Part shown: positions 8,385 through 41,597 of the stretch, in pieces
Numbering within the stretch: the first letter of the stretch is position 1
How the letters are laid out: every line of letters starts with the position of its first letter
Origin: Squalus acanthias
Taxonomy: Eukaryota
Length of the DNA stretch: 64,000 nucleotides
Assembly (NCBI GenBank): GCA_030390025.1
Contig: CM059431.1
Span: 94,304,001 to 94,368,000 of the forward strand
Direction: 5' to 3'
Translations under genes and position numbers: made by a program
The notes under the pieces: model-generated
What the model was told of the DNA's origin: nothing
The model's input: only the letters and a program-made list of their open reading frames with translations
Database searches by the model: none

Positions 8385-9384
8385 AAGTTTTCTCTGCTCA
8401 TCTACACTTTTAAAAATCATGCCATTTACAGTATACTTTCTTTCTATGTCATCCCAAAGTACATCACTTCACACTTCCCTGCATTAAACTCCATCTGCCA
8501 TGCTTCTGCCCATTTCGCCATCCTGAAGTCTACATCTATCCTCATCACTATCTACTACTTTGCCAAGTTTTGGATCATCTGAAAACCTTAAATTGCTGCT
8601 CCCTACACTCGAGTCTAGGTCGTTTAAAAAAATTGAAAAGAATAATGAACACAAAACTGGCCCTTGGGGAACACCACTGCAAACCATCCCCCACCCCAGT
8701 CTGAAAAACATCCATCCACCAGCACCCTTTGCTTTCTGTCATTGAGCCAATTCCGTATGCATATTGCCATTTTACCCTTGGGCTTCCATCTTCTTAACAA
8801 GCCTCCTGTGTGGCACTTCCGAAAGTCCATGTATACAACATCTACTGCATTACCTTGATCAACTTCTCTGTTACCTCATCAAAGAATTCAATCAAGTTAG
8901 TCAGGCATGATTTGCCTTCAACAAATGTATGCTGGCTGTCCTTGATTAACCCATGCCTTTCTAAATGAAAGTTTATTTTGCCCATGATAATGGTTTCCAT
9001 AACTTACCCACCACCGATGTTAGGCTGACTGGCCTGAAATTTCTAGTTTATCTCTTTTGCCTTTCTTGAATGGTGATATAACATTAGCAACCCTCCAGTC
9101 CTCCGGCACTACTCCTGTATCCAATGAGGATTGAAAGATTGTGACCAATGCCTCTGCTATTTCTACATTTGTTTCTTTCAGCAACCTAGATGCATTTCAT
9201 CCGGATCGGATGACTTATCAACTTTCAATAATGCTAATCATTTTAGTACGTCTTCTCTATCTATTACTATCCTGTCCATAACTTACATAGATACATAGAT
9301 ACATAGAAGATAGGAGCAGGAGTAGGCCATCCGGCCCTTCGAGCCTGCTCCGCCATTTAATGAGATCATGGCTGATCCTCCAAT

Positions 9385-12252
9385 TCAGTATCCCGTCCCC
9401 GCCTTCTCTCCGTAACCCTTAACCCCTTTTGCCTGTAGAAATATATCTAATTCCCTCTTAAATATATTTAATGAGCTGGCGTACACTGCCCTCTGTGGCA
9501 ATGAGTTCCACAGGTTCACCACCCTCTGAGTGAAGAAATTCCCCCTCATTTCTGTCCTAAATGGTTTAGCCCTTATCCTTAAATTATGTCCTCTAGTTCT
9601 GTTCTCACCCGCCAAGGGAAACATTCCTTCTGCATCTAGTCTGTCTAGACCTGTCAGAATTTTATACACTTCTATGAGGTCCCCTCTCAATCTTCTAAAC
9701 TCCAGTGTGTACATCCCTAAACTACATAGTCTCTCCTCATAGGTCAATCCCGCCATTCCTGGTATCAGCCTGGTGAATCGCCGCTGCACCCCCTCCATGG
9801 CAAGAACATCTTTCCTCAGATGAGGCGACCAAAACTGTACACAGTACTCGAGGTGTGGTCTCACCAGTGCCCTGTACAGCTGCAGCAAGGTATCCCTGTT
9901 CCTGTATTCCAACCCTTTTGCTATGAAGGCCAGCATACCGTTTGCCTTCTTGACCGCCTGTTGCACCTGCATGCTCGCCTTCAGTGACTGGTGTACAAGA
10001 ACACCCAGGTCTCTCTGTACTTCCCCCTCTCCCAATTTATTGCCATTTAAATAATAATTTGCCCTCCCGTTCCTGCACCCAAGGTGGATAACTTCGCACT
10101 TGTCCACATTATAGTGCATCTGCCATTTATCCGCCCAATCACCCAGTCTGTCCAAATCGCTCTGGAGCTTCCTGGTCTCCTCCTCTGAGCCCACCCCCCC
10201 TCCTAGTTTAGTGTCGTCTGCAAATTTGGAAATGCTGCATCCGACTCCCTGATCCAGGTCATTAATGTAAATTGTGAACAGCTGGGGACCCAGGACAGAT
10301 CCCTGTGGTACCCCACTTGTTACTGCCTGCCATTCAGAAAATGAGCCGTTTATTCCAACTCTCTGTTTTCTATCTGACAGCCAGTTCTCTATCCACGTCA
10401 ATACTTTCCCCTTTATCCCATGAGCTTCAATTTTCCATGCTAATCTTTTATGTGGGACCTTATCGAAGGTCTTTTGGAAGTCCAGGTACACCACATCTAC
10501 TGGCTCTCCCCCATCTATTTTACCAGTTACTCCCTCAAAAAATTCCAATAGATTAGTCAAGCACGATTTACCCTTTGTAAATCCATGTTGACTCTGTCCT
10601 ATCCTGTCCCCATTTGCTAAGTGCTCCGCTATTTCATCCTTAATGATGGACTCCAGCATTTTGCCCACAACTGATGTAAGGCTTACAGGTCTGTAATTAC
10701 CTGCTTTTTCCCTACCCCCCTTTTTGAATAATGGGGTAACGTTAGCTACCCTCCAATCCATGGGCACTGTTCCCGAGTCTAATGAATTCTGAAAAATCAT
10801 ACTTAGTGCATTCGCTATCTCTGGGGCCACCTCCTTCAGTACCCTAGGATGCATGTTATCAGGCCCTGGGGATTTGTCCGCCTTCAATCCCTTTAGCTTC
10901 CTTAACACCATATCCTTAGAGATATTGACTTGCGTCAGTTCCTCCTTTGCCAATGTCCCTATTTTTCCCGATATCCCAGGGAGGTTTTTTGTGTCTTCCT
11001 TCGTAAAGACTGACCCAAAGTATGCATTTAGTTGGTCTGCCATTTCCTTATTTCCCGTTATATATTCCCCCGTATCTGACTGCAATGGACCAACTTTGGT
11101 TTTCACCAGTCTTTTCCTCTTGATATACTTATAAAAGCTTTTGGAGTTAGTTTTTATATTTTCCGCCAGCTTGCTTTCGTAAGCTATTTTGCCCCTCTTG
11201 ATTAAGCCCTTTGTCCTCCTTTGCTCTATCTTAAACTGTTCCCAATCTTCCGCTCTGGCGCTTTTTTTGGCTATTTTATACGCCCTATCTTTGGATTTTA
11301 TGCTGTCTCTAATTTCCCCTGTTATCCACGGTTGAGTCACCTTTTTAGATTTCCTTTTATGCCAGATTGGTATAAACAATTTTTGCAATTTTGTCATTCT
11401 ATCTTTAAATGCTTGCCATTGTTTATCTACCTCCAGTCCTCCCAGGAACGTTGTCCAATCAGACCTACTCAGTTCCCGTCTAATGGCATCATAATTCCCC
11501 TTGTTTAAATTCAGGACCTTAGTCTCTGAGTCAATTTCTTCGCTCTCCATTTCGAGTGAGAAATCGATCATGTTATGATCGCTCTGACCCAAGGGTCCCC
11601 GTACAACAAGATTACTAATTAGTCCCTTCTCATTGCACAGTACCCAGTCCAATATAGCCTGTTCCCGAGTTGGTTCCTCGACATATTGATCCAGATAACC
11701 ATCCCTTAAACACTCAAGGAATTCCTCCTCCTCATTATTTTTACTGATTAGGCTAGTCCAATCTATATGTAAGTTAAAGTCACCTATGATGACAGCTGTG
11801 CTCTTATTGCACGCTTCTCTAATTTCCCTCGTGATGCCCTCCCCAACCTCTATTTTACTATTTGGAGGCCTATATACCACTCCTATTAATGTTTTTCGCC
11901 CCTCGCTATTTCTTAGCTCCACCCATATAGATTCTGTATTAACTGAGTTAATATCCTTCCTTTCAATTGCATTTATCCCCTCTTTTACCAGCAATGCTAC
12001 CCCTCCTCCCTTTCTTTTTTGTCGATCCTTCCTAAATACTGAATACCCCTGTATGTTAAGCTCCCAGCCCTGCTCACCCTGCAACCATGTTTCCGTAATC
12101 CCAATTAGATCATAATTATTAACCTCTATTTCCACAGCTAATTCATCTACCTTGTTCCTGATGCTTCTCGCATTAAGGTATAAAACCCTCAGGCTTTTTT
12201 TATGCACACATTTTTTATGAATTAGTTTGGCTCTTTGTTTTTTGTTCCTCAC
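9385..12252 (-). CDS. CR1 ORF2: APE endonuclease plus reverse transcriptase, uninterrupted (frame open up to about 12351; no ATG until 11571)
   Basis: Endonuclease motifs LNARS, ITETW, YRPP, GDFN and SDH. RT motifs YRPVSLTS, QHGF, LDFQKTFD, PQGSVLGP and FADD. 955 codons without a stop. Confidence 0.97.
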   Translation of the reverse strand: MRNKKQRAKLIHKKCVHKKSLRVLYLNARSIRNKVDELAVEIEVNNYDLIGITETWLQGEQGWELNIQGYSVFRKDRQKRKGGGVALLVKEGINAIERKDINSVNTESIWVELRNSEGRKTLIGVVYRPPNSKIEVGEGITREIREACNKSTAVIIGDFNLHIDWTSLISKNNEEEEFLECLRDGYLDQYVEEPTREQAILDWVLCNEKGLISNLVVRGPLGQSDHNMIDFSLEMESEEIDSETKVLNLNKGNYDAIRRELSRSDWTTFLGGLEVDKQWQAFKDRMTKLQKLFIPIWHKRKSKKVTQPWITGEIRDSIKSKDRAYKIAKKSARAEDWEQFKIEQRRTKGLIKRGKIAYESKLAENIKTNSKSFYKYIKRKRLVKTKVGPLQSDTGEYITGNKEMADQLNAYFGSVFTKEDTKNLPGISGKIGTLAKEELTQVNISKDMVLRKLKGLKADKSPGPDNMHPRVLKEVAPEIANALSMIFQNSLDSGTVPMDWRVANVTPLFKKGGREKAGNYRPVSLTSVVGKMLESIIKDEIAEHLANGDRIGQSQHGFTKGKSCLTNLLEFFEGVTGKIDGGEPVDVVYLDFQKTFDKVPHKRLAWKIEAHGIKGKVLTWIENWLSDRKQRVGINGSFSEWQAVTSGVPQGSVLGPQLFTIYINDLDQGVGCSISKFADDTKLGGGVGSEEETRKLQSDLDRLGDWADKWQMHYNVDKCEVIHLGCRNGRANYYLNGNKLGEGEVQRDLGVLVHQSLKASMQVQQAVKKANGMLAFIAKGLEYRNRDTLLQLYRALVRPHLEYCVQFWSPHLRKDVLAMEGVQRRFTRLIPGMAGLTYEERLCSLGMYTLEFRRLRGDLIEVYKILTGLDRLDAEGMFPLAGENRTRGHNLRIRAKPFRTEMRGNFFTQRVVNLWNSLPQRAVYASSLNIFKRELDIFLQAKGVKGYGEKAGTGY

Positions 12253-12326
12253 CCTTTTACCATTTATTTCTGTCTGCCTTTCACTTTCCTCTATTTCACT
12301 ACATAGGTTTCTAGCCCCCTGCCATA

Positions 12327-13263
12327 CTAGTTTAAATGCTCCCGAACTGCTTTATCAAAAATTACCCCGAGAACATCAGTTCCATCTTTGCACAGGTGTA
12401 GACCGTCCCTTTTGTATAGGTCACACCTACCACAAAACTGGTTCCAATGCCTCAAAAATTTAAAACCCTCCTTCTTACACCACTGCTCAAGCCACGTATT
12501 TAGCCTAACTATCCTGTTCTCTGTACTCTTACTAGCACGTGGCACTGGTAGTAATCCAGAGATTACTACCTTCGAGGTCCTACTTTTTAGCTTGGCTCCT
12601 AACTCCCTAAATTCTACTTGTAGGACCTCTTCCCTTTTTTTAGCTACGTCGTTGGTACCAACATGTATCACGACAACTGGCTGTTCCCCCTCCCCTTCCA
12701 GAATGTTCTGCACCCGCGCCGAGACATCCTTGACCCTTGCACCAGGGAGGCAACATACCATCCTGGAGTCTCGGTCGCGACCACAGAAACCCCTATCTAT
12801 TCCCCTTACAATCGAATCCCCTATTACTATAGCCCTGCCACTCTTTTTCCCTCCCTTCTTTGCAACAGAGCCAGTCATGGTGCCATGAGCCTGGCTGCTG
12901 GTGCCTTCCCCCGATGAGTCATCCCCCCCGACAACAGCACCTAAGGCGGTGAACCTGTTGCTAAGGGAGACAACCCCAGGGGATTTCTGCACTACCTTCC
13001 TGCCCTTGCTCTGCCTTTTGGTCACCCATGTATTATCTACGCTGGCCTTAACCTGCGGCGTGACCAACTCACTAAATGTGTTATCCACAACCCTCTCAGA
13101 ATCGTGGATGCTCCAAAGTGAGTCCATCCGCAGCTCAAGGGTCCCACATGAGCTGCAGCTGGACACACTTCCCGCACACATGGTTGTCAGGGACACAGGA
13201 AGCGTCCCTGATTTCCCACATGTTACAGGAGGAGCATGACACAGGTCTGAGCTCTACTGCCAT
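12327..13263 (-). pseudogene. CR1 ORF1 (CxxC...CxxC zinc finger, coiled coil, SGNH/GDSL esterase) with one frameshift near 13140
   Basis: ATG at 13263 reads MAVELRPVSCSSCNMW..VCGKC. Esterase motifs are GDS, LPGA, HVGTND and DGLHL. A deletion of about 11 nt relative to the 41597 copy shifts the frame. Confidence 0.9.
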
Positions 13264-37272: not shown

Positions 37273-38446
37273 TATAGAATCATAGAAATTTACAGCACAG
37301 AAGGAGGCCATTTTGGCCCATTGTGTCCGCACCGGCCGACAAAGAGCTCTTCAGCCTAATCCCACTTTCCTGCTCTTGGTCCGTAGCCCTGTAGCACTTC
37401 AAATGCACATCCAAGCACTTTTTAAATGTGGTGAGGGTTTCTGCCTCTACCACCCTTTCAGGCAGTGAGTTCCAGACTCCAACCACCCTCTGGGTGAAGA
37501 AATGTCCCCTCAAATCCCCTCTAAACCTCCTACCAATTACTTTAAATCTGTGCCCCTGGTTGTTGACCCCTCTGCTGAGGGAAATAGGTCCGTCCTGTCC
37601 ACTCTATTTAGGCCCCTCATAAATTTATACACCTCAATAAGGTCTCCCCTCAGCCTCCTCTGTTCCAAAGGAGGCAAACCCAGCCTATCCAATAATTCCT
37701 CGTAGCTAAAATTCTCCAGTCCAGGCAACATCCTCGTAAATCTCCTCTGTACCCTCTCTAGTGCAATCACATCTTTCCTGTAATGTGGTGACCAGAACTG
37801 CTCTTGTATTCTATGCCTCGGCTAATAAAGGCTAGCATTCCGTATGCCTTCTTAACCACCTTATCTACTTGGCCTGCTACCTTCAGGGATCTGTGGACAT
37901 GCACTCCAAGGTCCCTTTGTTCCTCTATACTACTCAGAGTCCTACCATTTAATGTGTATTCCCTTGCCTTGTTAGCCCTCCCCAAATGCATTACCTCACA
38001 CTTCTCCGGATTGAATTCCATTTGCCACTGTTCTGCCCACCTGACCAGTTCATTGATATCTTCCTGCAGTCTATAGCTTTCTTCTTCATTATCAACCACA
38101 TGGCCAATTTTTGTATCATCCGCAAACTTCTTAATCATACCCCCTACATTCAAGTCCAAATCGTTGATATATACCACAAAAAGCAAGGGACCTAGTACTG
38201 AGCCCTGTGGAACCCCGCTGGAAACAGCCTTCCAGTCACAAAAACATTCATCAACCATTACCCTTTGCTTCCTGCCTCTGAGCCATTTTGAATCCAACTT
38301 GCCACTTTGCCCTGGATCCGATGGACTTTTACTTTCGTGACCAGTCTGCCATGTGGGACCTTATCAAAAGCCTTGCTAAAATCCATATACACTACATCAA
38401 ATGCACTACCCTCATCGACCTTCCCTTAACAAATCCATACTGAATG
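37273..38446 (-). mobile_element. 5'-truncated CR1 (RT 3' half) with deletions
   Basis: PQGSVLGP, FADD and a CTATGATT tail. Confidence 0.9.
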
Positions 38447-39323: not shown

Positions 39324-41597
39324 TCATGTCCAAATTCCTGCCCCCTCCCCGTAACCCTTAATTCCCTTTACTTCTAGGAAACTGTCTATTTCTGTTTTAA
39401 ATTTATGTAATGATGTAGCTTCTACAGCTTTTTGGGGCAGCATATTCCATGGACCTACCACCCTCCGAGTGAAGTAGTTCCTTCTCATCTCAGTTTTGAA
39501 AGAGCAGCCCCTTATTATAAGACTATGCCCCCTAGTTCTAGTTTCACCCATCATCGGGAACATCCTCCCCGCATCCACCCGATCCAACCCCTTCACAATC
39601 TTATATGTTTCAATAAGATCGCCTCTCATTCTTCTGAACTCCAATGAGTAGAGTCCCAATCTACCCAACCTCTCCTCATATGTCCATCCTCTCATCCCCG
39701 GGATTAACCGAGTGAACCTTCTTTGTACTGACTCGAGAGCAAGTATGTCTTTTCTTAAGTATGGACACCAAAACTGTATGCAGTATTCCAGGTGCGGTCT
39801 CACCAATACCTTGTACAACTGAAGCAATACCTCCCTATTTTTATATTCTATCCCCTTAGCAATGAAAGCCAACCTCCCATTGGCCTTCTTAATCACTTGC
39901 TGCACCTGCATACTAACCTTTTGAGTTTCGTGCACCAGGACCCCCAGATCCCTTTGTACTTCAGTACTTTCCAGTTTCTTGCCATTTAGATAATAACTTG
40001 CTCTACTATTTTTCCTGCCAAAGTGCATAACCTCACACTTTCCAGTATTGTATTCCATCTGCCAAATCTCTGCCCACTTACTTAGCCTGTCTATGTCCCC
40101 TTGCAGATTTTTTATGTCCTCCTCACTCACTACTTTCCCTCCCATCTTAGTATCATCTGCAAACTTTGATATGTTACACTCGGTCCCCTCCTCCAAATCG
40201 TTAATATAGATTGTAAAGAGTTGGGGACCCAGCACTGACCCCTGCGGAAAGGCCTCATTAGAGGAACATGCTAAGATATCATCCCTCCTTACAGCAGTAA
40301 TTGACTCCTTGATTAATATTGCGACACCCCCTCTTTTACTCCCCCCTCTGTCTCGCCTAAAGATTCTATACCCTGGAATATTGAGCTGCCAGTCCTGCCC
40401 CTCCCTCAACCATGTCTCTGTGATAGCTACAATATCATACTCCCATGTGTTCATCAACACCTTCAATTCATCTACCTTACTCGCAAGACTCCTTGCATTA
40501 AAATAAATGCCATCCAGCCTTGCCATACTCCCTTGTGCCGTTACATATTTGCTCTGCCTTTCAGGCTGACTTGTTTTTTCCTCTATAGTTGGCTGTGCAT
40601 CATCCCCTACTATAGCTCCATTCCCTATCCCATCCCCCTGCCAAGTTAGTTTAAACCCCCCACCAACAGTACTAGCAAATCTCCCCGCAAGGATGTTGGT
40701 CCCTTTCCAGTTCAGGTGCAACTCGTCCGACTTGTACAGGTCCCACCTTCCCCAGAAGCAGACCCAGTGATCCAGGAAACTAAAGCCCTCCCTCCTGCAC
40801 CAACTCTTTAGCCATGCATTCATCTGCTCTATCCCCCTATTCCTATACTCACTAGCACGTGGCACCGGGAGTAATCCAGAGATTAGAACCTTTGAGGTCC
40901 TGCTTTTTAATCTGCTACCTAGCTCCCTAAATTCTTGTTGCAGGACCTCATCCCTGTTTCTACCCATGTCGTTGGTACCAATGTGAACCATGACCTCTGA
41001 CTGTTCGCCCTCCCCCTTCAGAATGCCCTGCAACCGTTCAGTGACATCCTTGACCCTGGCACCAGGGAGGCAACATAACATCCTGGAGTCACGTCTGTGG
41101 CCACAGAAACGTCTATCTGTTCCCCTTACAATAGAATCCCCTATCACTATTGCTCTCCCACTCTTTTTCCTCCCCTCCTGTGCAGTTGAGCCACTCATAG
41201 TGCCACGGACTTGGATCTTGCTGCATTCCCCTGAGAAACCATCTCCCCCATCAGTATCCAAATTGGAAAATCTGTCGGAGAGGGAGATGGACCCAGGGGA
41301 CTTCTGCACTACCTTCCTAGTTCTTTTACTCTGTCTGGTGGTCACCCATTTCCTGTCTGCCTGTGCACTCTTTACCTGCGGTGTGACCACCTTGTTAAAC
41401 ATGCTATCCACGAAGATCTCAGCTTCACGGATGCTCCACAGTGACTCCAGCCGCAGCTCCTGCTCTAAAACGCGGATTTCGAGTAGCTGCAGCTGGAGAC
41501 ACTTCCTGCACATGTGTTCGCCCTGGACACCTAAAGTGTCCCTGACTTCCAACATAGCGCAGGAGGAGCACTCCACGCTGCCGAGCTGCCCTGCCAT
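39324..41597 (-). CDS. Chimeric or internally deleted CR1 ORF: ORF1 (zinc finger, esterase) fused in frame to the EN N-half and RT C-half, 757 aa
   Basis: GDS/GTND esterase, then GGGFKLTWQG, FNARS/ITETW, then a junction near 40250 to PQGSVLGP/FADD. The element spans about 39235-41830. Confidence 0.75.
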   Translation of the reverse strand: MAGQLGSVECSSCAMLEVRDTLGVQGEHMCRKCLQLQLLEIRVLEQELRLESLWSIREAEIFVDSMFNKVVTPQVKSAQADRKWVTTRQSKRTRKVVQKSPGSISLSDRFSNLDTDGGDGFSGECSKIQVRGTMSGSTAQEGRKKSGRAIVIGDSIVRGTDRRFCGHRRDSRMLCCLPGARVKDVTERLQGILKGEGEQSEVMVHIGTNDMGRNRDEVLQQEFRELGSRLKSRTSKVLISGLLPVPRASEYRNRGIEQMNAWLKSWCRREGFSFLDHWVCFWGRWDLYKSDELHLNWKGTNILAGRFASTVGGGFKLTWQGDGIGNGAIVGDDAQPTIEEKTSQPERQSKYVTAQGSMARLDGIYFNARSLASKVDELKVLMNTWEYDIVAITETWLREGQDWQLNIPGYRIFRRDRGGSKRGGVAILIKESITAVRRDDILACSSNEAFPQGSVLGPQLFTIYINDLEEGTECNISKFADDTKMGGKVVSEEDIKNLQGDIDRLSKWAEIWQMEYNTGKCEVMHFGRKNSRASYYLNGKKLESTEVQRDLGVLVHETQKVSMQVQQVIKKANGRLAFIAKGIEYKNREVLLQLYKVLVRPHLEYCIQFWCPYLRKDILALESVQRRFTRLIPGMRGWTYEERLGRLGLYSLEFRRMRGDLIETYKIVKGLDRVDAGRMFPMMGETRTRGHSLIIRGCSFKTEMRRNYFTRRVVGPWNMLPQKAVEATSLHKFKTEIDSFLEVKGIKGYGEGAGIWT

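Follow-up and report, generated by a model that had tools for sequence, protein, structure and literature searches.

The translation of the second open reading frame (ORF2) of non-LTR retrotransposons is called 'not clear' in the accessible text of one review (PMC3708506). According to the available parts of this and a further review (PMC5972666), SART1 relies on a UAAUG stop-start coupling and human L1 is proposed to use an unconventional termination-reinitiation, and in both of these bicistronic LINE RNAs the translation of ORF2 depends on the end of ORF1. A different arrangement is given in the accessible descriptions of TRE5-A and TRE3-A of Dictyostelium, APE-type non-LTR retrotransposons whose -1 layout offers a precedent for such an arrangement in a LINE. 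In the gag-pol junctions of retroviruses and LTR-retrotransposons, an X_XXY_YYZ heptamer lies in the overlap, followed by a -1 enzyme ORF without its own start, and in retroviruses a small share of fusion is made beside an abundant first product. The shift sites of luteoviruses and dianthoviruses carry the 0-frame stop directly after the heptamer and have defined downstream or long-range structures. In gag-pol read-through of the murine leukaemia virus type, one frame is interrupted by a single stop, and UGA-C is the leakiest stop context. The heptamer UUUAAAC serves coronaviruses at 1a/1b and HTLV at pro-pol, and members of the CR1 group of LINEs are recognized by a short octamer repeat at the 3′ end in place of poly(A). 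UUUAAAC is also named as a classic shift site in a recoding review which, in its accessible part, includes non-LTR elements only as Drosophila telomeric elements (PMC5009743), while CR1-group elements are described, in the available text of another source, as the dominant retrotransposons in most vertebrates (PMC13343379).

The window (the whole stretch of 64,000 nucleotides of Squalus acanthias DNA that was analysed) contains three CR1 copies with a related ORF1/ORF2 junction, of which copy 1 shows the following features:

9282..13196, minus strand: CR1 copy 1, from the ORF1 start to the 3′ octamer repeat
12327..13196, minus strand: ORF1, 289 codons from a GTG, first ATG at 13181, ending H-L-N-stop
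12352..12357, minus strand: TGA TAA, closing the -1 frame 5 codons 5′ of the heptamer
12330..12336, minus strand: slippery heptamer T_TTA_AAC, in X_XXY_YYZ phase in the 0-frame (codons CAT TTA AAC)
12327..12329, minus strand: ORF1 stop TAG, directly 3′ of the heptamer
12311..12325, minus strand: mini-ORF ATG GCA GGG GGC TAG (MAGG-stop), out of the ORF2 frame
12315..12324, minus strand: G-rich motif TGGCAGGGGG, 5 bases past the heptamer
12187..12336, minus strand: linker from the slip site to the endonuclease, 50 codons, its ORF2 frame free of stop and Met codons
9385..12351, minus strand: ORF2 reading frame, -1 with respect to ORF1, 988 codons plus stop
9282..9300, minus strand: 3′ terminal (ATCTATGT)n repeat, with (ATCTATGT)n at 9300-9285

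Copy 1 has the features of a CR1-group LINE: an ORF1 with an SGNH/GDSL esterase domain (PF13472, E 4.6e-11; PF17182, E 1.3e-8), an ORF2 with an APE endonuclease (residues 60-259) and a reverse transcriptase (546-756; PF03372, PF14529, PF00078), and the 3′ octamer repeat. This shark/ray element is young, with three private differences in 541 bases. The 3′ end of ORF1 reads GAG CAT TTA AAC TAG on the minus strand. After TGA TAA, the -1 frame starts with SSSGA-FKLVWQG and remains free of stops through the endonuclease and reverse transcriptase down to 9385, so that two canonical features of -1 frameshifting, an in-phase heptamer and a downstream -1 ORF open across the shift site, are present. The first in-frame ATG of ORF2, at 11571, is residue 261, four residues past the endonuclease motif SDH, and the earliest start that the ORF-calling program could find was the GTG at 12252. 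Five ATGs lie between the ORF1 stop and the endonuclease, none of them in frame, and they encode peptides of 1-8 residues; one of them, the mini-ORF ATG at 12325, two bases past the stop, aligns with an ATG or ACG found after the stop in relatives. The position and phase of the heptamer, the opening of the -1 frame five codons upstream, the late first ATG, the out-of-frame MAGG-stop peptide and the call of ORF2 from a GTG had all been noticed in the first-pass annotation, and each was confirmed. Of the 127,986 positions in the window, 573 (0.0045) have a canonical heptamer; as the overlap offers only six in-phase positions, about 0.027 canonical in-phase heptamers would be expected there by chance. 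The leucine codon TTA accounts for only 0.18 of the Leu codons in the element, yet copies 1 and 2 both carry NNT TTA AAC.

The described systems match copy 1 in part. It shares the slip site in the overlap and the start-less -1 enzyme ORF with the gag-pol sites, and the proposal of a minor fusion with the retroviral ones, but it belongs to the non-LTR LINEs and encodes an esterase, not a capsid, as its first protein, it has no protease to cut the fusion, and no downstream hairpin or pseudoknot was detected by minimum-free-energy (MFE) folds or Rfam. As in luteoviruses and dianthoviruses, the slip site abuts the stop of the upstream ORF, although no structure was seen by the same two means. The layout is that of TRE5-A and TRE3-A, which differ in clade, host and ORF1, and for which the accessible descriptions give neither a conserved heptamer nor a comparative pattern. 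Unlike SART1 and L1, copy 1 lacks an in-frame AUG at the stop or close to it, and its ORF2 overlaps ORF1 at -1, which also separates it from read-through of the murine leukaemia virus type. Thus, neither a restart AUG overlapping or adjoining the stop in the ORF2 frame (the SART1 or calicivirus type) nor a read-through layout, with ORF2 in the same frame behind a single stop, is found in copy 1.

In several organisms, the CR1 family occurs mainly with this junction. The stretch was found in twenty runs from 10 studies; neither an indel nor a splice alters the junction in contigs from three other organisms and in the RNA reads of a fourth. Single contigs of runs X4 (3245 nt) and X6 (950 nt) cover 12080-12620 with three differences (12206, 12232 and 12472), all of them outside the junction and common to all runs. 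No indel between 12233 and 12383 appears among the variants listed for four runs, a comparison that leaves room for low-share substitutions at the heptamer because it rests on those variants. In the RNA run X23, reads at about 75 per bin cross the junction (12080-12620) without a joint, which indicates that no splice occurs here and excludes a splice acceptor 5′ of the endonuclease, an arrangement that the first-pass annotation had named as contrary to its proposal.

A wider comparison was obtained from related ORF1 proteins, whose junctions were set by anchoring on the D-G-x-H motif. Among the 121 relatives with a tail of 20-40 residues after this motif, 76 end in L-N (64), G-N (10) or K-N (2), and the preceding residues fit NNU UUA AAC, NNG GGA AAC or NNA AAA AAC; since the comparison stands mostly at the protein level, the codons of the relatives are deduced. 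A U-ending codon is available for the residue before L in 63 of 64 proteins, and a G-ending codon for the residue before G in all 10, where this residue is Q in 8. When restricted to the informative residues, Fisher's test ([[15,1],[0,8]]) gives p = 1.2e-5, a value that overstates independence, as the proteins are related. In alignment A3, L288 and N289 are nearly invariant and the 15 preceding residues variable, and a heptamer-compatible tripeptide stands at the homologous site in 124 of 149 relatives, where the remainder of these proteins would predict 36%. Within one clade, the ORF1 end toggles between QGN, SKN, SGN and SEN. There are exceptions without a canonical heptamer: the close relative P0031 ends in E-E-L-N, and a few others in S-E-N or Q-E-N. 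F-K-L is read at the site in frame-shifted copies or gene models (P0057, P0199, P0204 and copy 2 of the window), and in P0178 a T-K-N site leads, along the -1 frame, into the endonuclease. Among the called ORF2 proteins, the closest have their initial Met upstream of the endonuclease, and in P0003 and copy 3 ORF2 apparently starts at an ATG just past the stop. The alignment of junctions that the first-pass annotation had suggested as a check speaks for the proposed frameshift through its L/G/K-N ends, and against it through the AUG near the endonuclease in some relatives and the few non-canonical ends. A single in-frame ORF1-ORF2 as the norm was rejected, as a full ORF2 lies behind ORF1 in none of the best 150 ORF1 representatives. 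A pattern search in viral contigs gave 85 matches and no relatives, and a search in genome contigs one locus, L081, which matches weakly, lies in a bacterial bin and was set aside as irrelevant.

Four elements of the -1 type were compared in DNA, two of which have the heptamer in phase, namely copy 1 and L001, an unrelated element from a metagenome. L001 reads CAG GGA AAC TAG, that is G_GGA_AAC; its ORF1 (348 aa) is intact and its ORF2, at -1, spans at least 933 aa. It also has an ORF2-frame ATG 16 bases before the ORF1 stop and Met codons just before the endonuclease. A second layout was found in 22 metagenome loci (8 junction clusters), where, as in read-through of the murine leukaemia virus type, ORF1 and ORF2 share one frame with a single stop between them; this stop is TGA in every case, and the base after TGA is C in 19 of the 22. 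This one-frame ORF1-TGA-ORF2 order in distant relatives is an independent pointer to ORF1-ORF2 fusion by recoding in the group.

The other two copies of the window are diverged:

40646..40664, minus strand: copy 2 junction, with a G run at 40664-40656, TTTAAAC at 40655-40649, and TAA
49142..49151, minus strand: copy 3 junction TTTAACC-TAG, read GCT TTA ACC TAG, in phase in a decayed copy

The first-pass annotation had located the motif in both with the right coordinates, but the TTTAAAC of copy 2 is, as it stands, outside the X_XXY_YYZ phase, and T_TTA_ACC of copy 3 is not a slippery heptamer. Copy 2 shares about 73% identity with copy 1, as well as the G5 run and the frame relation past the heptamer, and has one extra G in the run 40664-40656, so that its ORF1 shares the frame of FKLTWQG and continues into ORF2; the claim that the -1 frame reads FKLxWQG in both younger copies is overstated for copy 2. 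As copy 2 matches a family that ends in G-G-L-N and has variable G runs (P0070, P0195, P0196), its ORF1-ORF2 fusion is most likely due to a private extra G. Copy 2 also has an in-frame ATG 5 codons 5′ of the endonuclease, and a TTG where copy 1 has ATG 12325. In copy 3, ORF1 contains a premature TGA, and the ATG that follows the stop shares its frame with the endonuclease. An ORF2 without AUG is therefore a trait of copy 1 and not, as had been proposed, of these elements at large, since copy 2, L001 and many called ORF2s have a Met near the endonuclease; these ATGs, near or upstream of that domain, make an AUG-dependent route possible in relatives.

Downstream of the slip site, the linker is open in the ORF2 frame in the three intact elements (copy 1, copy 2 and L001), whereas the other two frames of copy 1 have 6 and 8 stops. 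Among 20,000 shuffles for each element, an open linker arose in 1.3% (copy 1), 3.9% (copy 2) and 0.15% (L001). Copy 2 carries the very same G-rich motif TGGCAGGGGG, and comparable motifs are present past the stop of copy 3, of L001 and of the TGA-type relatives. MFE folds of 80-127 nt downstream in four elements revealed no structure (z of +0.54, +0.01, +0.66 and -0.48), nor did a second round of folds (+0.32, -1.19, +0.26 and +0.48), RNAalifold of 24 TGA-type junctions, or Rfam, with no matches; this result covers MFE folds, RNAalifold and Rfam, pseudoknots being outside its scope. The first-pass annotation had seen no obvious downstream pseudoknot.

The in-phase heptamer, the position of ORF2 at -1 and the equivalent sites in distant relatives make it probable that the ORF2 protein is produced by slippage, and programmed -1 ribosomal frameshifting is the best explanation for ORF2 of the copy 1 family, one that we hold with slightly more belief than doubt. 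The frameshift of the first-pass annotation, joining an esterase ORF1 to an endonuclease-reverse transcriptase (EN-RT) ORF2, thus gains from the junction form, the ORF1 ends, L001 and the open linker, and loses from the lack of a stimulatory structure in the folds. All the steps of the process are deduced from sequence. A ribosome translating ORF1 would arrive at U_UUA_AAC with the UAG stop next, and a small share of ribosomes would move back one base, exchanging UUA for UUU and AAC for AAA, to go on with CUA GUA UGG in the ORF2 frame. The product would be a small amount of esterase-EN-RT fusion beside plentiful ORF1 protein, comparable to retroviral gag-pol. After such a tandem slip, the residues H-L-N would be followed by the -1 frame, starting with the codon at 12330-12328, and the fusion would not read F-K-L. 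The adjacent stop codon, or a factor on the conserved G-rich motif 5 bases downstream, is a candidate stimulator.

The main rival to frameshifting is termination-coupled reinitiation, whereby the 40S subunit would stay after UAG and restart nearby at a non-AUG codon of the ORF2 frame, making a separate ORF2 protein and leaving the heptamer incidental. It is the route named for L1 and for SART1, where an AUG is used, in the available parts of the reviews (PMC3708506, PMC5972666), it would find in the open linker a region suited to any entry near the ORF1 stop and in the G-rich motif a conserved feature 3′ of that stop, and it is in line with the ORF2-frame ATG of L001 and with the apparent ORF2 starts right after the stop in copy 3 and P0003. 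However, the only ATG near the stop of copy 1 (12325) opens four codons out of frame, the first near-cognate in-frame codon, ATA 12294, lies 33 bases downstream, and neither the restriction to L-N, G-N or K-N with codon-compatible neighbours nor the opening of the -1 frame just 5′ of the stop would be explained; reinitiation is considered rather unlikely. Independent internal initiation near the endonuclease (at GTG 12252 or 12207, or CTG 12192), by leaky scanning or internal entry, would make the overlap irrelevant. The in-frame GTG and CTG codons exist and relatives have a Met at about the same place, but this route demands scanning past some 870 bases of ORF1 and five out-of-frame ATGs, leaves 28-48 open upstream codons and the conserved ORF1 end unexplained, and is considered quite unlikely.

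The two remaining alternatives turn on the G5 run and ATG 12325. Copy 1 could be dead or misassembled through a one-base indel, for instance one G fewer in the run, which would put this ATG into the ORF2 frame. Homopolymer runs are prone to indels, as the one in copy 2 illustrates, and the ATG aligns with the post-stop ATG or ACG of relatives; against this, the contigs of three organisms and the RNA reads of a fourth have the same junction without indel, the G5 run and the downstream frame relation are shared by copy 2, and both ORF1 and the 988-codon ORF2 are intact, which renders such an error highly improbable. In the least probable alternative, translation would restart at AUG 12325 and the ribosome would then slip by +1 on GGG_GGC, ahead of the UAG at 12313-12311, so as to reach the ORF2 frame. 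The geometry would permit it and copy 2 retains the G5 run, but this copy has TTG in place of the ATG, two rare events are needed, and the pattern of ORF1 ends is left unexplained.

As for precedents, the literature search found no slippery heptamer at the CR1 ORF1/ORF2 junction, with older CR1 papers (Haas 1997, Kajikawa 1997) outside its scope. PMC13343379 and PMC4120745 contain none of the terms frameshift, overlap, stop codon and readthrough, and PMC3905857 and PMC4316615 none of the first three. To judge from this search, the comparative evidence on ORF1 ends is new.

A broader and more tentative reading, towards which doubt prevails, is that the ORF1/ORF2 boundary of esterase-type CR1/L2-group LINEs may be an ancient recoding module with interchangeable forms, either -1 frameshifting at U_UUA_AAC, G_GGA_AAC, A_AAA_AAC or G_GGU_UUY adjoining the ORF1 stop, or UGA read-through where the ORFs share a frame. 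Across this very large set of animal LINEs, ORF2 protein would then always be born as a fusion with ORF1, and stimulation would come not from an RNA fold but from the neighbouring stop codon plus a factor, possibly the ORF1 protein, on the conserved G-rich motif. If true, this would provide a physical basis for cis-preference. A conserved slip site, if true, would give a simple and reporter-testable answer to the question of LINE ORF2 translation, and predicts an esterase-EN-RT fusion protein of CR1, for which, to our knowledge, nobody has looked. Annotation pipelines would no longer have to call 'start-less' ORF2s or merge them into host gene models. Finally, the slip site would set the ORF1:ORF2 ratio in these elements as retroviruses set that of gag to pol.

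The ORF1-ORF2 junction proposed as a programmed -1 frameshift site lies in a young and apparently intact LINE of CR1 type, minus strand (copy 1), in which an esterase ORF (ORF1) precedes an ORF for an endonuclease and a reverse transcriptase (ORF2). Its features are the following.

13196..12327, minus strand: ORF1, SGNH/GDSL esterase domain (PF13472, E 4.6e-11; PF17182)
12357-12352, minus strand: TGA TAA, shutting the -1 frame
12336-12330, minus strand: slippery heptamer T_TTA_AAC, X_XXY_YYZ phase
to 9385, minus strand: ORF2, APE endonuclease and reverse transcriptase (PF03372, PF14529, PF00078)
9300-9285, minus strand: terminal repeat (ATCTATGT)n, element end

Because ORF1 ends in the codons GAG CAT TTA AAC TAG, T_TTA_AAC falls in the slippery phase and abuts the stop, and the -1 frame runs after TGA TAA for 988 stop-free codons down to 9385. 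The earliest ATG in the ORF2 frame is residue 261 (11571), 4 residues past the SDH motif; the five ATGs found from the ORF1 stop up to the endonuclease all fall in other frames and encode peptides of 1-8 residues, and ATA at 12294 is the nearest near-cognate codon in frame. Since this anatomy matches, the first-pass annotation described copy 1 correctly in every detail (heptamer, phase, -1 frame and late ATG). At the other end of ORF1 (13100-13196, minus strand), where the first ATG is at 13181, alignment A3 of ORF1 proteins shows that copy 1 is missing about 30 residues of the N-terminal Cys-rich region found in P0031, the closest relative.

Of 127,986 positions on the two strands of the window, 573 carry a canonical heptamer (X_XXY_YYZ, Y being A or T), and since just 6 in-phase positions lie between the -1-frame opening and the ORF1 stop, chance would provide about 0.027 heptamers there. 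Between the heptamer and the first endonuclease motif, a linker of 50 codons contains no stop in the ORF2 frame, against 6 and 8 in the two remaining frames, and stayed open in 1.3% of 20,000 shuffles (0.8% for a 52-codon version).

The junction of copy 1 is not a private lesion, as checked in public sequencing runs. The stretch 11800-12900 is present in 20 of the 24 runs listed (10 studies), with at least half of the sampled words in 18, and six coded organisms, A-F (9 studies), contain 0.85-0.88 of its sampled 31-mers; the CR1 family of copy 1 is therefore either very young or near-unchanged among several taxa. Four runs were compared over 12080-12620, which single contigs span in the coded runs X4 (3245 nt) and X6 (950 nt) with three differences (12206, 12232 and 12472); these are common to all runs and therefore private changes of the window copy. 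Among the variants listed, beyond which the comparison has 80 further substitutions, no indel occurs within 12233-12383 in any of the four runs, and the sole indels are a compensating pair at 12384/12388, in one diverged X6 contig, that brings ORF1 back in frame upstream of the heptamer. A splice acceptor before the endonuclease was also considered: RNA reads of both orientations from run X23, about 75 in each bin, continue through the junction with no joint, which excludes such an acceptor for those transcripts.

The same motif and stop had also been noted in two diverged minus-strand CR1 copies; the motifs are present in both, but help the case less than the first-pass annotation supposed: copy 2 is fused by an extra G and copy 3 carries a non-slippery heptamer. 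Copy 2, which shares 73.5% identity with copy 1 over 306 bases, reads TTTAAAC-TAA at 40655-40646, followed by TGGCAGGGGG as in copy 1. The extra G, in the run 40664-40656, shifts its ORF1 into the FKLTWQG frame, so that ORF1 continues directly into the ORF2 frame; this G is most likely private to copy 2, because the proteins of its family (P0070, P0195, P0196 and P0200) end in ...G-G-L-N with variable G runs. An internal deletion joins ORF2 residues 4-139 in frame to 682-985 (about 140-681 are gone), and the result is one frame, open for at least 758 codons (41600 to 39324, minus strand), that fuses ORF1 with the beginning of the endonuclease and the ORF2 C-terminus and has an in-frame ATG 5 codons upstream of the endonuclease. 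Copy 3 is decayed, with a premature TGA in ORF1; its junction at 49151-49142, GCT TTA ACC TAG, keeps the phase, and its endonuclease shares the frame of the ATG after the ORF1 stop. CR1 fragments crowd the window: ORF2 has more than 20 separate matches there, spread over the two strands, and several lie nested within or directly against one another; near 37280, a 5'-truncated copy begins directly after the 3' repeat of another.

Protein relatives of ORF1 were obtained by phmmer against 1.84 billion representatives (2609 matches, of which the best 150 were examined) and by a word-based search giving 41 closer relatives, whose source-named members are sharks and rays except for one record labelled Pseudomonas aeruginosa. 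A D-G-x-H-like motif lies near the C-terminus of 145 of the 184 proteins, followed in 121 by a tail of 20-40 residues, and these tailed relatives end in L-N (64), G-N (10) or K-N (2). Of the 28 closer relatives that extend to the C-terminus, 26 end in L-N, and the other two (P0199 and P0204) read F-K-L and then continue. L288 and N289 are near-invariant in alignment A3, and the 15 residues before them are variable. Leu, Gly and Lys have little in common chemically, but UUA, GGA and AAA are the XXY codons preceding AAC in U_UUA_AAC, G_GGA_AAC and A_AAA_AAC. The preceding residue follows the third-position rule as predicted: a U-ending codon is possible before L-N in 63 of 64 proteins (the exception being E in P0031), a G-ending codon before G-N in 10 of 10 (Q in 8), and the residue before K-N is S in both cases. 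Residues informative for the third base give the table [[15,1],[0,8]] (p = 1.2e-5), although p-values at ORF1 ends are indicative only, because the proteins are interrelated and the codons inferred. Considering all classes, a heptamer-compatible tripeptide occupies the homologous place in 124 of 149 relatives, with 36% predicted from the rest of the same proteins.

One clade, with 60-70% identity to the ORF1 of the metagenome locus L001, toggles between Q-G-N, S-K-N (4 members), S-G-N and S-E-N, and another family retains x-K-N at the homologous place, ORF1 extending 11-14 residues beyond; from this point P0178 matches the -1 frame into the endonuclease. Non-canonical ends in a few relatives (E-E-L-N, S-E-N and Q-E-N) count against frameshifting. 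Other proteins (P0128, P0152, P0159 and P0224-P0227) end in G-F-R, G-F-C, G-F-T or G-F-F-R, which at the protein level would fit NNG GGU UUY (G_GGU_UUY) 1-2 codons before the stop; a G-ending codon is always possible for the residue before G (A, S, E, V, L, Q or K). P0194, 61% identical to residues 150-289 (the C-terminal half) of this shark ORF1, has an NCBI entry as a Pseudomonas aeruginosa SGNH/GDSL hydrolase on a 4159-base contig; the bacterial assembly was probably contaminated from a host or from the sample. Three NCBI gene models of Mobula birostris (P0043, P0214 and P0168), named 'transmembrane protein 204' and 'ABHD14A-like', include esterase segments of CR1 ORF1 and are either exonised repeats or annotation artefacts.

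At the DNA level, copies 1 and 2 spell NNT TTA AAC despite the low use of TTA (0.18 of Leu) and of T-ending codons (0.22 overall) in the window CR1 element, where AAC makes up 0.44 of Asn. A metagenome scan gave 80 loci with distant ORF1 relatives (26-38% identity); the ORF1 end was located in 66, and 48 of these have a downstream endonuclease. L001, the sole -1 locus with an in-phase heptamer among the 48, has an intact ORF1 of 348 aa ending CTG CAG GGA AAC TAG, that is, G_GGA_AAC plus stop, an ORF2 of at least 933 codons in the -1 frame, and a 68-codon linker open in 0.15% of shuffles. For 22 of these 48 loci (8 junction clusters), ORF2 has the same frame as ORF1 and is open from immediately past the ORF1 stop, which is TGA in all 22, with C next in 19; the other 25 show offset or interrupted frames, as expected of decayed copies. 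This TGA-type layout is read-through-like, a distinct mechanism that also predicts an ORF1-ORF2 fusion. An ATG two codons past the stop alternates with ACG in some of its copies, which may reflect CpG decay of ACG GCG. Junctions of both the -1 and TGA types carry a G-rich motif 5-12 bases past the ORF1 stop.

TGA-type loci: L003, L007, L010, L012, L014, L016, L018-L020, L024-L026, L029, L031, L040, L043, L054, L055, L061, L063, L069, L077
G-rich motif: 12315-12324, 40634-40643, L001 and TGA-type loci; TGGCAGGGGG, or GGCGGGGAGC in TGA-type

The reading with the best support is a tandem -1 slip, low in frequency, at U_UUA_AAC by ribosomes about to meet UAG. The predicted fusion, of roughly 145 kDa (about 1270 residues), would read ORF1 ...H-L-N and switch to the -1 frame at codon 12330-12328, so the F-K-L obtained by conceptual translation of that frame would be absent from it; candidate stimulators are the stop next to the heptamer and the conserved G-rich motif. 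Folding of the downstream region, proposed in the first-pass annotation as a check, gave no structure by z-scores or Rfam, which speaks against FRAMESHIFTING: two sets of pseudoknot-free folds yielded z-scores of +0.54, +0.01, +0.66 and -0.48, and of +0.32, -1.19, +0.26 and +0.48; RNAalifold found no conserved downstream structure in 24 TGA-type junctions, and the Rfam search no match. The main rival, termination-coupled reinitiation at a non-AUG codon, accounts for the open linker but leaves the codon-level pattern at the ORF1 end unexplained. In L001, an ORF2-frame ATG lies 16 bases upstream of the ORF1 stop, and reinitiation is therefore a live alternative there; the 29 gene-called ORF2 relatives matched, which begin at Met upstream of the endonuclease, also count against frameshifting.

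A -1 layout in a LINE is not new in kind. HeT-A and TART are the only non-LTR elements in the available part of a large recoding review (PMC5009743). The literature searched, which did not extend to the 1990s CR1 papers, yielded no account of a slippery heptamer at the junction of a CR1 element; frameshift, overlap and stop codon go unmentioned in four CR1/ORF1 papers (PMC13343379, PMC4120745, PMC3905857 and PMC4316615), as does readthrough in the first two. The observation at the junction is confirmed, and its interpretation, for which the lack of a detected downstream structure and some non-canonical ends are unfavourable, is partly supported on computational grounds by L001 and the family-wide pattern of ORF1 ends, and offers good experimental tractability.
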